The translations under genes and the position numbers were made by a program. The notes beneath the pieces are model-generated. The model had not been told where the DNA came from. It was given only the letters and a program-made list of their open reading frames with translations, and did not search any database. Shown here piece by piece: positions 1 through 47,224 of a stretch of 64,000 bases of DNA. Within the stretch, counting starts at the first letter, position 1. Every line of letters begins with the position of its first letter. Origin of the DNA: Naegleria gruberi (taxonomy: Eukaryota); assembly GCA_000004985.1 (NCBI GenBank), contig GG738870.1, one strand, 5' to 3'.

Positions 1-316
1 TGATACCATCACTTGTTTCCAATTTTAGGCATGTCAATCTGCCTTGATAGAGTTCTTCAAATGATAGTACCTTTCTTTGAAGAGTACCTTTGATAATCGT
101 AATGACACCGGCTGCTTTATCATCCTTATTACAGTGTGATCCAAATATGGAGCACGGTTGAAAGAATTTGGCAGCTTTTGAAACTTGATCCTTGAATTCA
201 TTGTGTGACCAATGAGTTTCTTGGACATTCACTACATTAAGTCCTTCTCTATTAATGTGTTGGAGTAGAATGGCTTGTTTGTCTAGAGAGAAGGACGACA
301 GATTACAAGAGGCCAT
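1..316 (-). CDS. Partial CDS: N-terminus of an EEP/APE-type endonuclease-like protein (possible retrotransposon ORF2 5' end); runs off the left window edge
   Basis: ATG at 316..314 (minus); translation MASCNLSSFSLDKQAILLQHINREGLNVVNVQETHWSHNEFKD...AAGVITIIKG... open to position 1. The LNVVNVQETH and GVITII motifs resemble the start of AP-endonuclease (EEP) domains. Not in the ORF track because it runs off the edge. Confidence 0.4.
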   Translation of the reverse strand, partial: MASCNLSSFSLDKQAILLQHINREGLNVVNVQETHWSHNEFKDQVSKAAKFFQPCSIFGSHCNKDDKAAGVITIIKGTLQRKVLSFEELYQGRLTCLKLETSDGI

Positions 317-336
317 TCTAATGCGAGGGGAGACCA

Positions 337-1800
337 TTATTGTTGGTCGGAAGCTCCGTTCATATCCGTATCATCGTCGGATAGAGTGAGAGCTTCTTTG
401 CCTTGTTTTCTTTGTTTTCTAGGCTTGTGACTTGAGCCAGAAGGTAAAAAGGTTTGCACATCTGTTGACAATTCAGTCAACTTATCGTCTAATGCACCAA
501 TCATAGTATAAGTATTTTCATAGTCCGTATCTAGTTCGGCAAGCATTTCTTGTACTTGAGTATTCCTTTTGTTGCTATCTTCACTGAGTGTATTAATTTT
601 AGTTTCAGTGGTAGTGAAGGAGGATTGCAACTGACTGAGTTGGATTTGGAGGGAAGTAATTTCATCCAAAAGACCGTCAATTTTAGCAACTTTAACTTTC
701 ATTTCATTATTTTCTTTAGAGTGGTTGCTAAGAGTAACTGATTTGTCCAAGACGTTCTTATCGAGGTTAGTGTAGTGGGTTCTAATATTATTAATACTAG
801 TATTGAGTTCCTTAAAATCATTTGTGTGTATAGTATTGATATTTGTAATGGATTTTTCTAACTCATCATTCTTAGTCTTCAGAGCCTGATTTTCTTTGAC
901 TAATGAATCAACCCGAGATTGCAGCTCAGTGTATGCACTGGCAAGAACAAATCTGGTAGGATCTACGAGGGAAGCTTCTGAGATGGCGTGTTGAACCAAC
1001 TCCTTCACTTTGGTGATGAGGGAAGGTTTGTTGAGTCTAGGATTGAAGGAGAGATTTGTGACAACGACATCTCCAACGTAGATAATTTTGGTGAGTGTGC
1101 TTTTTTTCAGCTCTTCACGTTTGACTTTAACATAAGCGGTGTTGTTGTTAATGTCAAGTTCAGGATTAAGTTTCCACGCACTAATAATGACCTTTTTGAG
1201 TGCATCGATTTGTAGTTTTCTATCCGAATCCCAAGTGAGACGTAGAGTAGTGGTACTGACGTCTATTTCAGATAGAAAGTTGGGTTTATTATCTAATAGA
1301 TTTTCAACATTAACAGCCCAGAAATTATTCGAAGGGGAATAATTCATGCTAACAACTGACTTCACCTCACCGATCACCTTTTTAAGGTTTGGAATATTGA
1401 ATGGAAGGTCTACCTTATAGCGATACAGAGTGGAGACTCTTTGAAGAAACATAAATGAGTCTGTACCTTTCCACTCCTTAACAGCATTAAGTGCCATTTC
1501 ATGGCTCACAAAGTAAGCAAAGGCTACTCCTTTGAGGCCCAATGGAATGTGAACACCATTAACCCAACTCAGGTTAATGTTGTAGTGTTCTAAAATTTGT
1601 TGCTGGCTGCTGTTATCAGGATGACCCGCAAGAAGGACCCTGAATCTACGCTTATAAGATGGGAAGATGTGGCGTACCTGTCTACCATCTTTAGCTTCTG
1701 CTTTGGATGTGGCAGGTGTGTTGGCCTTCCTTGCTGATGTGTTGTTGTTGCTTGGAGACTGGTCAAGTTTTCCTCCGGGAGTCGGAGGAGTTTTGCCCAT
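337..1800 (-). CDS. RRM-like plus C-terminal coiled-coil protein (possible retroelement ORF1 / RNA-binding protein)
   Basis: Track ORF 337..1857 starts on TTG. First ATG at 1800 in an aaaaaaaATG context. RNP-like segment LKGVAFAYFVSHEMA, then a long heptad-rich coiled coil. The stop lies only 18 nt upstream of the ATG at 316. Confidence 0.5.
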   Translation of the reverse strand: MGKTPPTPGGKLDQSPSNNNTSARKANTPATSKAEAKDGRQVRHIFPSYKRRFRVLLAGHPDNSSQQQILEHYNINLSWVNGVHIPLGLKGVAFAYFVSHEMALNAVKEWKGTDSFMFLQRVSTLYRYKVDLPFNIPNLKKVIGEVKSVVSMNYSPSNNFWAVNVENLLDNKPNFLSEIDVSTTTLRLTWDSDRKLQIDALKKVIISAWKLNPELDINNNTAYVKVKREELKKSTLTKIIYVGDVVVTNLSFNPRLNKPSLITKVKELVQHAISEASLVDPTRFVLASAYTELQSRVDSLVKENQALKTKNDELEKSITNINTIHTNDFKELNTSINNIRTHYTNLDKNVLDKSVTLSNHSKENNEMKVKVAKIDGLLDEITSLQIQLSQLQSSFTTTETKINTLSEDSNKRNTQVQEMLAELDTDYENTYTMIGALDDKLTELSTDVQTFLPSGSSHKPRKQRKQGKEALTLSDDDTDMNGASDQQ

Positions 1801-1945
1801 TTTTTTTGAACCCCATATATATTGAAGAAAACCCAATCTCAATATCTTTTGACTCAAATTCTTCCCTCAAACTACTGTAAGGACATTAAATTTCCAAAAT
1901 AGTATTAAAAAACGCCAATTTTTCAAGTTCATTTAAGGCACGCTA

Positions 1946-3055
1946 ATGTGCGATCGGATGAATAAGAAAAACAACAATAAAAAAATGGAAACAATCACAG
2001 CGCTTATTCCCTCCTCCGTGAAGGATCATTTTGAAACTCTGTTATCTTGCACGGTGAAGAGTAGTGATAAGATGAATAGGGTGATCTCTTACGGATTTTT
2101 GGGAAGTTTAATGTTGTACTTGGGGCGAAGATTTTTCAGAGGAACTTTCGTTTCTTCCGAATTGATGAATAAGAAGGATTTGAGTGGACAAGTTGTGCTG
2201 GTTACTGGATGTAGTAGAGGAGGAATTGGTTATGAAACTGTAAAGGCTTTGTATTTAAGAGGAGCTCAAGTTGTTGTTGCTGTTAGAGATAAAGCAAGAA
2301 GTGAGAAGGAATTCTTTGAATTGTTGAATCAACATAAGGGAGAACAGAGAGGATTTATTGTTGTAATGAAGGTGGATTTGGATGATTTGGAAAGTGTTAG
2401 AGAATTTGCAAAGGAATTTTTACAGAGATTTAATCGATTGGATATTTTGATTAATAATGCTGGATTGGGAGGAGCTGATGGTGTTTCTAAACAGGGATAC
2501 GAAACTCATTTTGCTGTAAATCACTTGAGCCACTTTTTATTGGTTCATTATTTGAGACAATTGATTTTGGATACTAGTGTTAAATATTATAAGGAATGTA
2601 AAATTATCAATGTTGGATCGGCTGCTCACATGTTTGTTAGAAAGGAGGAACACTTGAATTTTACAAAGGAAAGAATTAGTAAGGCTGACCCTACCATGTT
2701 TGCTTATGGTCAATCCAAGCTCTGTAACTTGTTATTTACAAAATCCCTTGCTAGACAATTACAAGATTCAAAGGTTGGAGTATATGTTATACATCCAGGA
2801 GCTGTGCAAACAAACTTTTTCCGCAGAATGCCAATCATGTCCATTTTGAATTGGATTGTTTGGTACTTTTTCAAGACTCCAGAAGGAGGTGCTCAAACTC
2901 AAATCCATGTTGCCTTGGAAAGTATGGATAAGTTACGTAGTGGAGGATATTATTCAGATTGTGGACTGGCTAGAGAAACCTCTCTTGCAAATAATGTCGA
3001 CATTCAAGACAAGTTATGGAACTTCAGTGAAGAATTGTGCAAGGATTATATGTAA
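1946..3055 (+). CDS. Short-chain dehydrogenase/reductase (retinol dehydrogenase / WWOX-like SDR)
   Basis: TGCSRGGIGYET cofactor motif, NNAG motif, YGQSKLCN catalytic Tyr-x3-Lys, and HPGAVQTNF. ATG at 1946. Hydrophobic N-terminal segment. Confidence 0.9.
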   Translation: MCDRMNKKNNNKKMETITALIPSSVKDHFETLLSCTVKSSDKMNRVISYGFLGSLMLYLGRRFFRGTFVSSELMNKKDLSGQVVLVTGCSRGGIGYETVKALYLRGAQVVVAVRDKARSEKEFFELLNQHKGEQRGFIVVMKVDLDDLESVREFAKEFLQRFNRLDILINNAGLGGADGVSKQGYETHFAVNHLSHFLLVHYLRQLILDTSVKYYKECKIINVGSAAHMFVRKEEHLNFTKERISKADPTMFAYGQSKLCNLLFTKSLARQLQDSKVGVYVIHPGAVQTNFFRRMPIMSILNWIVWYFFKTPEGGAQTQIHVALESMDKLRSGGYYSDCGLARETSLANNVDIQDKLWNFSEELCKDYM

Positions 3056-3554
3056 TGAATGTCATTTCAGAATTTACATTAAAATAATTACAATTAAATG
3101 TTCAAGATAGAAATTTGAAGTCTCTTCGAAACTATTAGGTTAATAATTTATTCATTCCATTTATTTAGAGTGTGAAATATAAGGAATATCCTTTAACTAT
3201 TAAGGAACTTTGAACGGATGTGTATATTAATAAACAGTGCAGCCCCTACCAATTTCTGACCTTCCTCCTTCACTACTGGGTGTATAATCTTAACACAATT
3301 AAATTAGCACATGTCCACCTTGTTAAGGCAGGCACATTTTGTATTACTGGGGATTTATGTTAGGCAAAATCGCCTTATCAGAATGGAAGGAACCTATTTT
3401 GTCTCCTCCTTGGTCTTCTAGAACCACTAAAACACTAGACACAGCACCAGATCGCGTTTCATCAACAACTTCAAATCGTTGTTTAACATCCATGGAACCT
3501 TCTCTCAACAACCACACGAAAAAAAAACAGATGATTCTTCATCGTCATCATTCC

Positions 3555-6500
3555 ATGAAAAACCTCTGCGCATTGCCACTGCTACTAATATTATGCTTTC
3601 AAACAGTATTGCTATTCTTCCATTCATCATGCATTCAGCCAGTCAGAGGTGAAACATGTTTTGGAATTGCATCGAGCAGTTCAAAAACTTGTTCTGGAAG
3701 AGGTGTTTGCACACCAGATAATTTGTGCACATGTAATGTGGATTCATCATTGGGTTCTTCCTCTCCCTATTCTGGATTGAACTGTGAAGTAGATTTGTGT
3801 TTTCCTAATGCAATTATTTCTTATAATTGCAATGGAAATGGACAGTGTGAAAATGGTGTTTGTAAATGTAAGGAGGGAACTTCTGGATTCATGTGCCATT
3901 TGAATAGTACCAAATTGATGTGTTTTGGTGTGAGTGGAGGTGATTCAAGAGTTTGTTCTGGTCATGGAAAATGTTTGGACACGAACGTGTGCTCATGCCA
4001 AGATGGTTATACAGGAACTGAATGTCAAATTCCACTATGTTATGGTATTCCATCAACTTTGACATCAAGCGTTTGCTCTGGTAAAGGTACATGCAAGGGA
4101 CAAGATACATGCGAATGTCAATCAGGTTTTTCTGGAGCTAATTGTGAAGTACTTGGTTCAGTATCTTCGCAAGGCTCATCTATTGCAATTCCAGCATCAT
4201 TTTGTGGATCAATAATTGATAGTGATAACAGAACATGTAATGGAAGAGGAAAATGTATTGCCAATGACACATGTCTATGTATGGAAGGTTACAATGACCA
4301 TGACATGTGTCAGAGTACATTCTGCTTTTCAATTCCACAATATGATGCACTGGTTTGCAGTGGACATGGCAACTGCATCGATTACAATACATGTAATTGT
4401 ACTTCTTCTGGAAATTCTTCATTGAACTTTATTGGAAATGAATGTGAAATAGTTCAATGTTTAGGAAGAAATTTCCATTTTTACAATAGCACAGATTCAA
4501 ATGTTTGCAATGGAAATGGTTTCTGTTCCTCTACCAATGATGGTTGCATTTGTAAGGATGGTTATTACGGAGATGCATGTGAACAATTTTCCTGTTTTGG
4601 TATTTCATCAACAAGTGAAATTTCTTGTTCTGGAAATGGACAATGTTTAGATATTGACACTTGCTCATGCTACTCAAATTTACAACAAGGTTATTGGAGT
4701 GGAGAAAATTGTGATATCTGTGATGAAAATTACTCTGGAACGCATTGTAACGAAACAGTAACTTGTCAATCTGAAACTTTTTGTAATCTTTTAGGATCTT
4801 GCTTTAACAATACATGTCAATGTGAAGAACAATACTCGGGACCATCCTGTAGTTTGTGTCAGGGTGGTTTCTATGGTCCATTCTGTAACCATAGCTGTTC
4901 CAGAGTGGACACATGTCATGGACATGGAGAATGTTCAAGAGATGGAATTTTCTGTGAATGTGATCAATCTAATGAGGATGGTTATTGGGATGATTTGTCA
5001 ATGTGTCAAAAATGTAAGAATGGATATTTTGGATCAAGCTGTTTATTGAGAATCGGTGAAAGTTTCGGTTTAAATTCATTGGGAAATGAAATTGTAATTC
5101 CATTAGTGATTCGTCCAAATAATTTGCAGAATTTACTGAATTGCTCTTTGATATTGGTTTTGGAAAGTAGAAGAATGCTTGGATCCTTCCCTGAATGCTG
5201 GATTGATTCGAATAATATGTTGAGAATTACCATTCCAAAAGATTCGACATTTTCTCCAATTCTTAATTCTGATAGAATTGTTATAATTCCAAGTGGTTTT
5301 GAAAATGGTATTCAGAAAAACGAAACCATTTCCCTTCCTTTTGATTCTATCAATACGAAACTTGTCCTTCCAGTTGCCAAAATCTATTCGAATTCAACTT
5401 ATATTCTTCCAAATAGTGATTTAACTTTAATTGGTTCAAATTTACTAAGAATTGAAAGAGAAAGAAATCTGACATTTGAATGGTCTTTGAAGAGTAGTGA
5501 TTCTGATTTTGCCTTATTTCAATCGAATTTGAATTCAAGAATTTCGAGTGGAAAATTTGGTCAACTGACAATTACAAAATCTGACATTCCATCAACTGTT
5601 ACTACATTCCAGATCCAATTGATTGTTAGAAATCAAATTAATAATATTTCCAGTAATCCTACTCATATGACATTCACTGTATTGAAATCTACAACTTTAC
5701 AACAAGTTTACAATGGAGCTTACAATTTGAAATTCAATTTACCAACTCAAATTCTTTATGTACATAATGACATGTTACCATACAAGTTAAAATACTCTCT
5801 ATTACAAGATAATTCACCTATTTCACTTCCAAACTCTAGTTATTCCATTCAATTTTCAATTAGTCCAACACCTTCGGATAACACTTTCGTTACTTTACAG
5901 AATTCGAATGGTATTTTAACAATTTCCTCAGCGTATAACTATGACAATCAGAATAATGTTTATGAAGGATTCGATGGTCAAGTGTTTAACTCTTCCAAGT
6001 TTTATCAAATTATTGGAACTGTCACTCATGTGCCAAGTGGAAAAATTGTCACTCAAAAATCAATCAAATCATTCTTTATTAACAGAAATAGTGGAGCGAG
6101 ACCTGATTTTGATACTGGTAGTCTAAATCCTCTTCCAACACAAGCAGGTCCCGCAGCCATAACCATCCTAACCAATGGACACACTTTTGATTCAGTTGAC
6201 TGGGATTGTTTCGAATGGTCTGGAGTTGGTGGAAAGTGCAGTAATGAATGGATGGCAGCAATTGCAGCATCCAAAGATTCCAACATCCTAAACGTTCCAC
6301 TCGACACTTTTTTCCTTGCTAAGAATCCTCTTTACGTCAGAGCTAAGGTTGTGATTGCTGGCATTCCCTATTATCTCCAAAGCTCAGTAACCCCATCTCA
6401 GGGATTTGGTTTCAAGACTTTGAATGGAGCAACTTTGTACAGTATCATTGCTGGAATGCAGTTGGCCAAAATTGATCGAACCAATTCTCACACAGCTGTC

Positions 6501-7202
6501 TATTCTTGGATGGATTACCAATTTAAGGATACTGTGAATGGAGCCACACTTACTTATGAAGTTAGAGATCAAGATAATAACTTATTAACGCCAACATCGT
6601 CATATATTACACTGGATACTAATCAGAGAAAGTTTACAATTTCTGGTTCAAATATTCCAACAAGTGTTAAAGTATTGAAAATCTCAGTTCGTTTTACAGT
6701 TCCTAATTTTACCAATTTTAAATATAGAGCTTATCTTTATTTGGTTCCAGATGCAATTACCCAACCTAGTCCAACATCAGTGTTGAATTATACTGTTTTG
6801 GAAAATGGATTGAGAAAGTATACGTTAAATTATCAATTGACCAAAACATATGTTGCTGCCATGTCATCCATTTCATTAAAAATTGGAAGTCATAAGATTA
6901 GTATTGCCAATGTCGGTCCAAGTCAACTTGTGAAATTTATACTTCCACCCCTCTTGGATGCCAGCTCAATAATTGCTGATGTGACATATGTCGATAATAG
7001 ATATGTCGGTGGTGCTAGCTCCATTACACAACAATTCACATTACATTCTCTACCTGCCGAAAGTCAATCATCTGATTCTTTTATTCGTTCCATGCAAGAA
7101 TCCATTCGAACAGATGCCACAACTTATTTAGGTACTAATTTTGTAATGTTAATAATGAATATTAGATATTTGGGTGAGGAATATGATTTCCCTACCATGT
7201 AA
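3555..7202 (+). CDS. Secreted EGF/tenascin-type repeat protein (about 17 Cys-rich EGF-like modules plus a large Cys-poor C-terminal domain)
   Basis: Track ORF 3339 begins on TTG. ATG at 3555 gives the signal-peptide-like MKNLCALPLLLILCFQTVLLFF. Repeated CSGHGKC..C.C..GYTG..C modules fill the first ~500 aa. Confidence 0.8.
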   Translation: MKNLCALPLLLILCFQTVLLFFHSSCIQPVRGETCFGIASSSSKTCSGRGVCTPDNLCTCNVDSSLGSSSPYSGLNCEVDLCFPNAIISYNCNGNGQCENGVCKCKEGTSGFMCHLNSTKLMCFGVSGGDSRVCSGHGKCLDTNVCSCQDGYTGTECQIPLCYGIPSTLTSSVCSGKGTCKGQDTCECQSGFSGANCEVLGSVSSQGSSIAIPASFCGSIIDSDNRTCNGRGKCIANDTCLCMEGYNDHDMCQSTFCFSIPQYDALVCSGHGNCIDYNTCNCTSSGNSSLNFIGNECEIVQCLGRNFHFYNSTDSNVCNGNGFCSSTNDGCICKDGYYGDACEQFSCFGISSTSEISCSGNGQCLDIDTCSCYSNLQQGYWSGENCDICDENYSGTHCNETVTCQSETFCNLLGSCFNNTCQCEEQYSGPSCSLCQGGFYGPFCNHSCSRVDTCHGHGECSRDGIFCECDQSNEDGYWDDLSMCQKCKNGYFGSSCLLRIGESFGLNSLGNEIVIPLVIRPNNLQNLLNCSLILVLESRRMLGSFPECWIDSNNMLRITIPKDSTFSPILNSDRIVIIPSGFENGIQKNETISLPFDSINTKLVLPVAKIYSNSTYILPNSDLTLIGSNLLRIERERNLTFEWSLKSSDSDFALFQSNLNSRISSGKFGQLTITKSDIPSTVTTFQIQLIVRNQINNISSNPTHMTFTVLKSTTLQQVYNGAYNLKFNLPTQILYVHNDMLPYKLKYSLLQDNSPISLPNSSYSIQFSISPTPSDNTFVTLQNSNGILTISSAYNYDNQNNVYEGFDGQVFNSSKFYQIIGTVTHVPSGKIVTQKSIKSFFINRNSGARPDFDTGSLNPLPTQAGPAAITILTNGHTFDSVDWDCFEWSGVGGKCSNEWMAAIAASKDSNILNVPLDTFFLAKNPLYVRAKVVIAGIPYYLQSSVTPSQGFGFKTLNGATLYSIIAGMQLAKIDRTNSHTAVYSWMDYQFKDTVNGATLTYEVRDQDNNLLTPTSSYITLDTNQRKFTISGSNIPTSVKVLKISVRFTVPNFTNFKYRAYLYLVPDAITQPSPTSVLNYTVLENGLRKYTLNYQLTKTYVAAMSSISLKIGSHKISIANVGPSQLVKFILPPLLDASSIIADVTYVDNRYVGGASSITQQFTLHSLPAESQSSDSFIRSMQESIRTDATTYLGTNFVMLIMNIRYLGEEYDFPTM

Positions 7203-35710: not shown

Positions 35711-36401
35711 AAAATCATTCCATTTTAATAATTATTATTCCATTTATAGAAAAATGTGTGAACTTTAAATTTAAACTTTCTTGAAAATGCAAAAGAGGAA
35801 ATTTTGAGTACATACTACACCTAATTTTTCTCAGCCTGTTGTTGTTGCCAATATTTTCACTAAAATCATTATCACTGTCAGATTCGCATGATAATTCGGA
35901 AAACTTTCAATCTAATATTGTTCAACAACATGATCGATTCCATCAGGTACTTCCGAACATTTTCCTATTGGTTATCATGATGATATAGGTATTATTGTTT
36001 GCATTCCAATGATTTTGTAAAACTGTCTTTAAATTTGATATTTGGTTCTCTTGTCGATCGACAATATCTTCTGTATCTTTGTTTTCTTGTTTTTCTTGAG
36101 GGGATTTCCTGTTAGTGTTCCCTTCTCACTGGCTGTTGCTGTTGTTGTTTCATAGCATCCTTAATTTGTTGTTGGACGTCAACAACCAATTCATTACTTG
36201 TTGACATTTTTCAAAGTAATTATCAAATTAATAAATATTCAATATTGAAGTATATAAAATTTCATTCAAAACAAATATTTTGAGGAATTGAATTTAAGAA
36301 TGGATCGGGATCCCTCAATCATGTAATATTTAAATATCAAATTTAATATTTAAATTATTTTGATATTACAATTTCGGAAGTTTACAAATCAAAAAAAAAA
36401 A

Positions 36402-47150: not shown

Positions 47151-47224
47151 TACCGACAATGGGGCTCGAACCCACGACCCCAGGATTAGAAGTCCTGTGC
47201 TCTATCCAACTGAGCTATGACGGC
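47151..47224 (-). tRNA. tRNA-Arg (anticodon UCU)
   Basis: Minus-strand sequence GCCGTCATAGCTCAGTTGGATAGAGCACAGGACTTCTAATCCTGGGGTCGTGGGTTCGAGCCCCATTGTCGGTA folds as a cloverleaf: D-stem GCTC/GAGC, anticodon stem CAGGA/TCCTG with loop CTTCTAA, T-arm GTGGG-TTCGAGC-CCCAT. One U-U mismatch in the acceptor stem; no intron. Confidence 0.85.

Follow-up and report, generated by a model that had tools for sequence, protein, structure and literature searches.

The window analysed here is a 64,000-nucleotide (nt) stretch of contig GG738870.1 of Naegleria gruberi (assembly GCA_000004985.1). Its first bases, from 1 to about 1930 on the minus strand, are very probably the 5′ portion of a single copy of an APE-type retrotransposon of this species that lacks long terminal repeats (non-LTR), similar to long interspersed nuclear elements (LINEs). 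The element is ordinary in kind; the family is new and undescribed, and the layout of its first open reading frame (ORF1) is non-standard. Searches of full-text papers aimed at Naegleria, with Repbase not among the sources, turned up no account of a LINE family from this genus. In intact relatives of the element, the second frame (ORF2) encodes an endonuclease, then a reverse transcriptase (RT) and, at the C-terminus, a CX2CX7HX4C motif. RNase H is absent, and the whole element is about 5.3 kb long. An earlier note on this DNA had proposed the 5′ half of a non-LTR retrotransposon, and the proposal is borne out by related ORF2s that continue into an RT domain (RVT_1) in three environmental contigs (L001, L004 and L005).

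Two frames and their link to a reverse transcriptase

Read from ATG 1800, ORF1 encodes 487 amino acids (aa) on the minus strand (1800..340) and ends at a TAA stop at 339-337, the frame and the end that the earlier note had given. The mechanically called version of the frame (337..1857, minus strand; 506 aa) is opened by a TTG at 1857. The coding sequence (340..1800, minus strand) is that of NAEGRDRAFT_67931, and its product matches, at 100% identity, N. gruberi XP_002676789.1 / EFC44045.1, which sits on a 418-kb scaffold and carries only the NCBI label 'predicted protein'. Base composition is AT-rich, with about 34% GC, which agrees with this origin. Between the ORF1 stop and ATG 316 lies a minus-strand spacer (317..336) of 20 nt, a gap first counted as 18 nt. 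This ATG, at 316-314, opens ORF2 in frame +2 relative to ORF1, and no stop interrupts the 105 codons from there to base 2, at the window edge. The edge-cut fragment (2..316, minus strand) translates as MASCNLSSFSLDKQAILLQHINREGLNVVNVQETHW...AAGVITII...SDGI, with exactly the residues originally quoted for it, and corresponds to the N-terminal part of an APE-type endonuclease of the endonuclease/exonuclease/phosphatase (EEP) fold, including the catalytic-Glu motif QETH. Both frames are unbroken throughout the visible part of the copy, 487 codons in one and 105 in the other.

The gene order is repeated in the relatives. Four environmental contigs (L001, L002, L004 and L005) carry an ORF1 homologue followed 11-17 nt later by an ORF2 start. 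In L001 the ORF1 homologue is 32% identical to that of the window, the spacer is 14 nt, and ORF2 (982 aa) contains RVT_1 (E=1e-33) and a weak Exo_endo_phos match. L002 has a homologue at 56% identity, a spacer of 17 nt and the start of ORF2 only. L004 combines a 5′-truncated ORF1, an 11-nt spacer, a 934-aa ORF2 with RVT_1, and a frameshifted C-terminal piece with CX2CX7HX4C. Both frames are intact in L005: an ORF1 of 569 aa is followed, after 11 nt, by an ORF2 of 1121 aa with endonuclease, RVT_1 (E=2e-34) and CX2CX7HX4C. Wherever an ORF1 homologue has readable DNA or a gene model, it lies directly upstream of an ORF2 beginning MAS(C/F)NLSSF, a statement that leaves out L006. Gene models in which ORF1-like and endonuclease sequence are fused occur in N. 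gruberi (P0006, P0030) and in environmental sequence (P0027, P0031). The window copy has the same bicistronic arrangement, with ORF1 directly upstream on the same strand and a short conserved spacer. The RT itself is present at the level of the family, in L001, L004 and L005; in the window copy the corresponding region falls past base 1.

Homologues of ORF1 are very rare. A word-indexed search of 5.8 billion proteins returned 3 homologues, and an exhaustive profile search found 19 clusters among 1.84 billion representatives. One of these clusters is a fish multi-qRRM protein that matches the RNA recognition motif (RRM) alone; no other cellular orthologue was identified among the 19, the rest of which are N. 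gruberi models and environmental sequences. These numbers bear on the idea that the window holds two closely spaced ordinary cellular genes, one for an RRM/coiled-coil RNA-binding protein and one for an EEP-family phosphatase or nuclease. ORF1 is just a 'predicted protein' at NCBI, the ORF2 fragment has no Pfam match of its own, and RRM and EEP folds are common among host proteins, all of which would suit such a pair of genes. However, homologues of the ORF2 N-terminus run into RVT_1 in three independent contigs, which already contradicts it. The order of ORF1 and ORF2 and a spacer of 11-20 nt are kept while ORF1 identity falls to 32%, the copies are multiple, truncated and nested, and the ORF1 homologues make up just 19 clusters, among which the RRM-only fish protein is the sole cellular match. 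We therefore regard a pair of cellular genes as highly improbable. The earlier note had named single-copy ORFs with conserved cellular orthologs among the findings that would sink its proposal; there are several copies instead, and no cellular orthologue of ORF1 was identified in its clusters.

The endonuclease was placed by homology and by its motifs. The ORF2 fragment is 67.6% identical to N. gruberi P0005 (NAEGRDRAFT_68513), 60% identical to the L001 ORF2 and 54% identical to the L005 ORF2. It also matches a region of N. gruberi P0030 (NAEGRDRAFT_75389) at 35% identity (E=7e-13), and that region passes the Pfam Exo_endo_phos cut-off, at 24.6 against 24.5 bits. Members of the family match Exo_endo_phos or Exo_endo_phos_2 at E=2e-3 to 5e-6. 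With phmmer, residues 13-845 of the L001 ORF2 align with residues 23-870 of human L1 ORF2p, and three endonuclease motifs are collinear between the two (CIQESH/CIQETH, ILGDLN/IMGDFN and RPDHI/KIDHI). The homology to P0030 and the collinear motifs agree with the AP-endonuclease/EEP start that had been recognised from the residues. The identification of an APE/EEP endonuclease at the ORF2 N-terminus has its weak points, a fragment without a Pfam match and a null result against PDB, to which we return below.

The RT places the family among non-LTR elements. Compared with solved structures, the family RT is closest to R2 proteins (E=1e-30) and L1 ORF2p (E=5e-17). Beyond the family, even the closest proteins reach only about 25% identity. 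A protein search with the ORF2 profile for relatives in named clades returned family members alone, and scans of JGI metagenome contigs with the ORF2 and ORF1 profiles gave no relatives. A retroelement of a different class (LTR, DIRS or Penelope-like), its ORF1 being a gag analogue, has two points in its favour: DIRS and Gypsy elements are reported for Naegleria lovaniensis in a repeat table, and gag-pol elements, too, place a pol-like ORF2 behind an ORF1. Against this, ORF2 has an APE-type endonuclease, then an RT, then a Cys/His motif. The 1121-aa ORF2 of L005 gave no protease, integrase, tyrosine recombinase, GIY-YIG or RNase H match, no terminal repeats were seen in L005, and the closest solved RTs are those of R2 and L1. 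Such an element is highly improbable, and the least probable of the explanations we weighed.

The family shares much with human L1. Both have a bicistronic layout on one strand, an RNA-binding ORF1 with an RRM and a coiled-coil-type helix, and an ORF2 with an N-terminal APE endonuclease, an RT, a C-terminal Cys/His motif and no RNase H. In the alignment of L001 ORF2 with human ORF2p, the QE(S/T)H, GD(L/F)N and DH motifs are in register. The differences are also clear. The Cys/His spacing of L1 is CX3CX7HX4C, whereas that of the Naegleria-family relatives is CX2CX7HX4C. The relatives end in ...TTTATTATTTTT, with no poly(A) tail, unlike L1. By similarity score, the family RT is nearer to R2 than to L1.

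Gene order, domain content, spacers, selection and truncated copies can all be read from the sequences compared, and established LINE biology suggests how such an element would multiply. A promoter in or near the 5′ untranslated region (UTR) would give a single bicistronic RNA. ORF1p, presumably oligomeric through its helical region, would coat its own RNA in cis, and ORF2 would be translated at a low level by reinitiation past the ORF1 stop, across the spacer of 11-20 nt. ORF2p would then nick chromosomal DNA, and the RNA would be copied from the nick by target-primed reverse transcription. This process often fails short of the 5′ end, which would explain the 5′-truncated and abutting copies seen among the relatives.

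The junction between the frames contains one further feature. One more in-frame ATG, at 337-335, shares letters with the ORF1 TAA (TAATG, 339-335). SART1, of the R1 clade, uses UAAUG stop-start coupling, and human L1 uses termination-reinitiation. The window resembles both in having an ORF2 start very near the ORF1 stop. However, the overlap is absent from L001, L002 and L005, in which the ORF1 stop is TAG (L001, L002) or TAA (L005). The TAATG was rejected as a conserved stop/start coupling signal, being without counterpart in those three contigs. Because ATG 337-335 is not kept in relatives, the conserved ORF2 start is ATG 316, and starts of this kind lie 11-20 nt past the stop.

An ORF1 outside the described types

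The N-terminal tail of the ORF1 protein, residues 1-43 (1672..1800, minus strand, like the domains that follow), is a basic, low-complexity segment rich in Pro, Ser and Thr (K+R 8, P 5). It is variable and rich in insertions and deletions among the homologues. An RRM domain occupies residues 53-130 (1411..1644), with a beta-alpha-beta-beta-alpha-beta topology, an RNP1-like KGVAFAYF and an RNP2-like RVLLAG. The topology comes from an AlphaFold model of moderate pLDDT built on a 3-sequence alignment. Profile searches matched qRRM domains both in PDB (E=0.0085) and in the library of 1.84 billion representatives (E=1e-7), and Pfam RRM_1 appears below threshold and in homologues only. Fold and RNP1/RNP2-like motifs together put these residues in the RRM superfamily, and the modelled topology and the qRRM matches agree with the RRM-like segment of the earlier note.

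The rest of the protein is a second RNA-binding-type region followed by a long helix. Residues 131-282 (955..1410) have an RRM/xRRM-like fold with a C-terminal helix and hold the best-conserved motifs of the family (MNYxPS..FWA, WK and NLSFNPR). Residues 283-455 (436..954) form a long helical region that is prone to coiled coil, as judged from its periodicity, its scarcity of Pro and Gly and sub-threshold Pfam matches. It contains 1 Pro and 3 Gly in 173 residues. A hydrophobic periodicity of 3.5 residues exceeds the 95th percentile of shuffles in 28% of its 28-residue windows, and many coiled-coil Pfam families match residues 285-450, all below threshold. A coiled-coil-type helix is thus supported by sequence features, heptad-type periodicity among them, in line with the long C-terminal coiled coil of the earlier note. 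The last residues, 456-487 (340..435), comprise a basic patch, KPRKQRKQGK, and then an acidic tail. The LSDD(D/E) core of that tail is kept in L001, L002 and L003 and is absent in the L004/L005 family.

This protein fits no described type of ORF1. In the scheme of Khazina and Weichenrieder, as summarised in PMC4120745, type I ORF1 proteins have an RRM with a CCHC zinc knuckle, and type II proteins have a coiled coil, an RRM plus a CTD (C-terminal domain). A comparison with Transposase_22 and L1 ORF1 models had been proposed; the Pfam scan of ORF1 returned no Transposase_22 (PF02994) and no above-threshold RRM, just coiled-coil noise at 285-450, and the protein is not L1-type. The L1 order, with the coiled coil before a single RRM and the CTD behind it, is reversed in the window, where the RRM comes first and the helix last (PMC4120745). 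No CCHC zinc knuckle directly follows the RRM, since the 487-aa protein has no cysteine at all. With no cysteine and no Transposase_22 match, ORF1 fits neither the L1 type nor the zinc-knuckle type, and under the same scheme (PMC4120745) it would fall into neither type I nor type II and be 'unclassified'.

Two other groups of elements invite comparison. LINEs with a type I ORF1 (I, Jockey, R1, Tad1 and plant L1, with 1-2 RRMs plus CCHC) also have one or more N-terminal RRM-type domains, and the tandem RRM-like arrangement of the window resembles the version with two RRMs. They differ in that the window ORF1 is cysteine-free and has a coiled-coil-prone helix in place of the CCHC knuckle. Dictyostelium TRE/Tdd elements, which the earlier note had brought up, are likewise APE-type LINEs from an amoeboid protist, and they too have two compactly spaced ORFs. 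No sequence link to them was found, TRE reference sequences not being among those compared.

These features might place the element in a deep-branching, undescribed LINE lineage, so far met only in N. gruberi and environmental contigs, with an ORF1 made of tandem RRM/xRRM-like domains and a C-terminal coiled coil, no zinc knuckle and no poly(A) tail. We hold this placement only tentatively. Such an ORF1 plan may effectively be a circular permutation of L1 ORF1p.

Copies, damage and selection

Sequence like ORF1, ORF2 or both occurs in at least four N. gruberi gene models (P0001, P0005, P0006 and P0030), which lie on four scaffolds and represent diverged subfamilies. The copies are dispersed and include 5′-truncated ones. 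A second, nearly identical copy is found in L003, from the same metagenome as L001: over window positions 1-1791 it is 99.7% identical at aligned positions, with five differences in 1,760 nt. With so few differences, the window and L003 copies are young. The copy count that the earlier note had asked for thus gave at least four N. gruberi models on four scaffolds and the close copy L003.

Selection has acted on both frames. In comparison with L002, ORF1 has a dN/dS of 0.18 over 357 codons, and the ORF2 fragment one of 0.087 over its 105 codons. By this measure of sequence change, both ORFs are real coding sequence under purifying selection.

L003 differs from the window at the 5′ end. It has 78 extra nt (26 codons; L003 121-198) after ORF1 codon 3, between window positions 1791 and 1792, and L001 and L002 hold diverged versions of these codons. 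Upstream of the indel the window and L003 share just 22 nt (GGGTTCAAAAAAAATGGGCAAA), beyond which their 5′ UTRs are dissimilar. This difference may reflect replacement of the 5′ UTR or recombination between subfamilies. The L003 contig may be chimeric, or the copy may be 3′-truncated. Its indels, its different upstream sequence and its loss of family sequence make L003 a separate copy that is either damaged or chimeric. At L003 2170-2410, after ...LSLSDL, an unrelated frame opens with LVVLLLALVGCGN, which resembles a bacterial lipoprotein signal.

The 3′ ends were examined in the relatives. L004 and L005 diverge after ...AATAAATACACACTTTATTATTTTT, so the 3′ end in that subfamily has no poly(A). 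L004 is 5′-truncated, and its nt 1-391 are an inverted, 96%-identical copy of its own 3′ end (5234-5626) that abuts it. The 3′ flank of L004 (5878-6172) holds two 145-nt copies of a sequence, 98.6% identical and 150 nt apart.

Several observations weigh against an APE-type non-LTR element in the window, or against its being a whole one. An RT and a Cys/His motif of the window copy would lie past base 1, out of view, as would its 3′ end and any target-site duplications. The endonuclease assignment draws on low Pfam scores and motif collinearity: the Pfam scan of the window ORF2 fragment alone gave no match, an endonuclease-only profile found nothing at E<=1 among PDB sequences, and hhalign comparisons with single EEP-containing LINE proteins were weak (probability 0.4% and 14%). 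Protein searches, one of them queried with ORF1, returned no N. gruberi gene model that matches the ORF2 fragment at 100%; either such a model was never called or the frame is broken further on. Only one copy is present within the 64 kb. Finally, the window ORF1 lacks, in frame, the 26 N-terminal-tail codons present in L003, and the L003 ORF2 has a frameshifting 31-nt deletion and leaves family sequence after about 175 codons.

Some of these points would equally suit a retrotransposon-derived locus that is dead or partial, in which ORF1 is intact, ORF2 is broken or truncated, and ORF1 is either decaying or kept as a host RNA-binding gene. The 99.7%-identical L003 has a frameshifted ORF2 that runs into unrelated sequence, the window ORF1 carries the 78-nt in-frame deletion relative to L003, and no N. 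gruberi gene model for the window ORF2 appears in protein searches. In addition, each of the models P0005, P0006 and P0030 is partial or fused, which suggests that the copies are damaged or that the models were stretched to get around damage. On the other hand, both frames of the window copy are intact over the visible 487 and 105 codons, the 31-nt deletion of L003 is not in the window, and with five differences in 1,760 nt the two copies are young. Gene models are unreliable in transposable-element regions, and L003 is perhaps a chimeric metagenome contig. Every readable ORF1 homologue (L006 lies outside this set) is linked to a transposable element, which gives no sign of domestication. A dead or partial locus is unlikely on balance, though far more credible than either host genes or another retroelement class, and we continue to read the window as the 5′ part of a non-LTR retrotransposon copy.

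The 5′ region, its neighbours and the meaning for Naegleria

The putative 5′ UTR of the element is placed at 1801..1932 on the minus strand. An 18-nt start context, GGGTTCAAAAAAAATGG, reads the same in four diverged copies, those of the window, L001, L002 and L003; in the window, 15 nt of it (1801-1815) adjoin the ORF1 ATG. This context may act as a signal, either for the start of translation or close to a promoter. At 1918-1932 there is a weak GAAyTTGAAAAAT-like motif. Beyond the 18-nt context, similarity between the 5′ UTR of the window and the others was not above that of shuffles, leaving the 5′ boundary of the element unfixed; a borderline 15-nt match between the window and L002 was reached by 11 of 500 shuffles. 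In L001, L002, L003 and L005, the sequence preceding the ORF1 ATG is 100-121 nt long. L001 has a perfect 10-bp hairpin, CCCACCACTTCGTGAAGTGGTGGG, at its 5′ end (6-29), about 95 nt upstream of ORF1, with no counterpart seen in the window, L002 or L003.

On the other side of this region is a short-chain dehydrogenase/reductase (SDR) gene (1946..3055, plus strand; adh_short, E=4e-28), divergent from ORF1. The gene is as real as the earlier note had taken it to be. Its figure of about 90 bp for the distance was counted from TTG 1857, and it is 145 nt from the ORF1 ATG (1800) to the first SDR ATG (1946). Should the 5′ UTR match or exceed the 100-121 nt of the relatives, the element would end no more than a few tens of bp from the start codon of the SDR gene. 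The SDR frame opens with MCDRMNKKNNNKKMETITAL (1946-1990, plus strand), and its first 13 codons are low-complexity. Those 13 codons may overlap the 5′ UTR of the LINE, in which case the real SDR start may be ATG 1985; the LINE would then have landed at most a few tens of bp from the start codon of that gene. No tandem repeats were found in 1-3000.

Other features of the window lie farther from the element. Beside the SDR gene lies a plus-strand ORF of 1287 aa (3339-7202). By eye, numerous cysteine-rich EGF/tenascin-like repeats can be made out in the N-terminal half of its product, and on that impression it could be the gene for a large protein of secreted or surface type. At 35888-35985 (minus strand), about 100 nt located between ORFs share 85.6% identity with the final 100 nt of L001 (5450-5550), which are non-coding and downstream of the point at which the L001 ORF2 stops resembling the family. 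This stretch has the look of a short repeat dispersed in N. gruberi-like genomes and is no recognisable part of the LINE. A tRNA-Arg(TCT) gene at 47151-47224 (minus strand) is the sole Rfam/ARAGORN match in the 64 kb. The Rfam search of the 64 kb thus found no tRNA or small-RNA gene near the element and gave no sign that such genes are targeted, the sole tRNA being about 45 kb off and the 3′ junction lying off the window.

There are several consequences for Naegleria and for the study of LINEs. First, no fewer than four of the 'predicted proteins' of N. gruberi (NAEGRDRAFT_67931, _68513, _46456 and _75389) become retrotransposon ORFs, and NAEGRDRAFT_67931 and _68513 are parts of elements rather than host genes. 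Second, the presence of 99.7%-identical copies, combined with strong purifying selection, suggests recent activity in an otherwise repeat-poor genome. If this is true, the family would be relevant to a native insertional tool and to studies of genome defence in Naegleria. Third, the family adds an excavate (heterolobosean) LINE whose ORF1 lies outside the described types I-IV, and it supports the view that ORF1s are modular and have been repeatedly reinvented around RRM and oligomerisation modules. Finally, should the element belong to a deep-branching lineage, its ORF1 would be an independent solution to making a multimeric RNA-coating protein, and the family would be a useful outgroup for the origins of ORF1.

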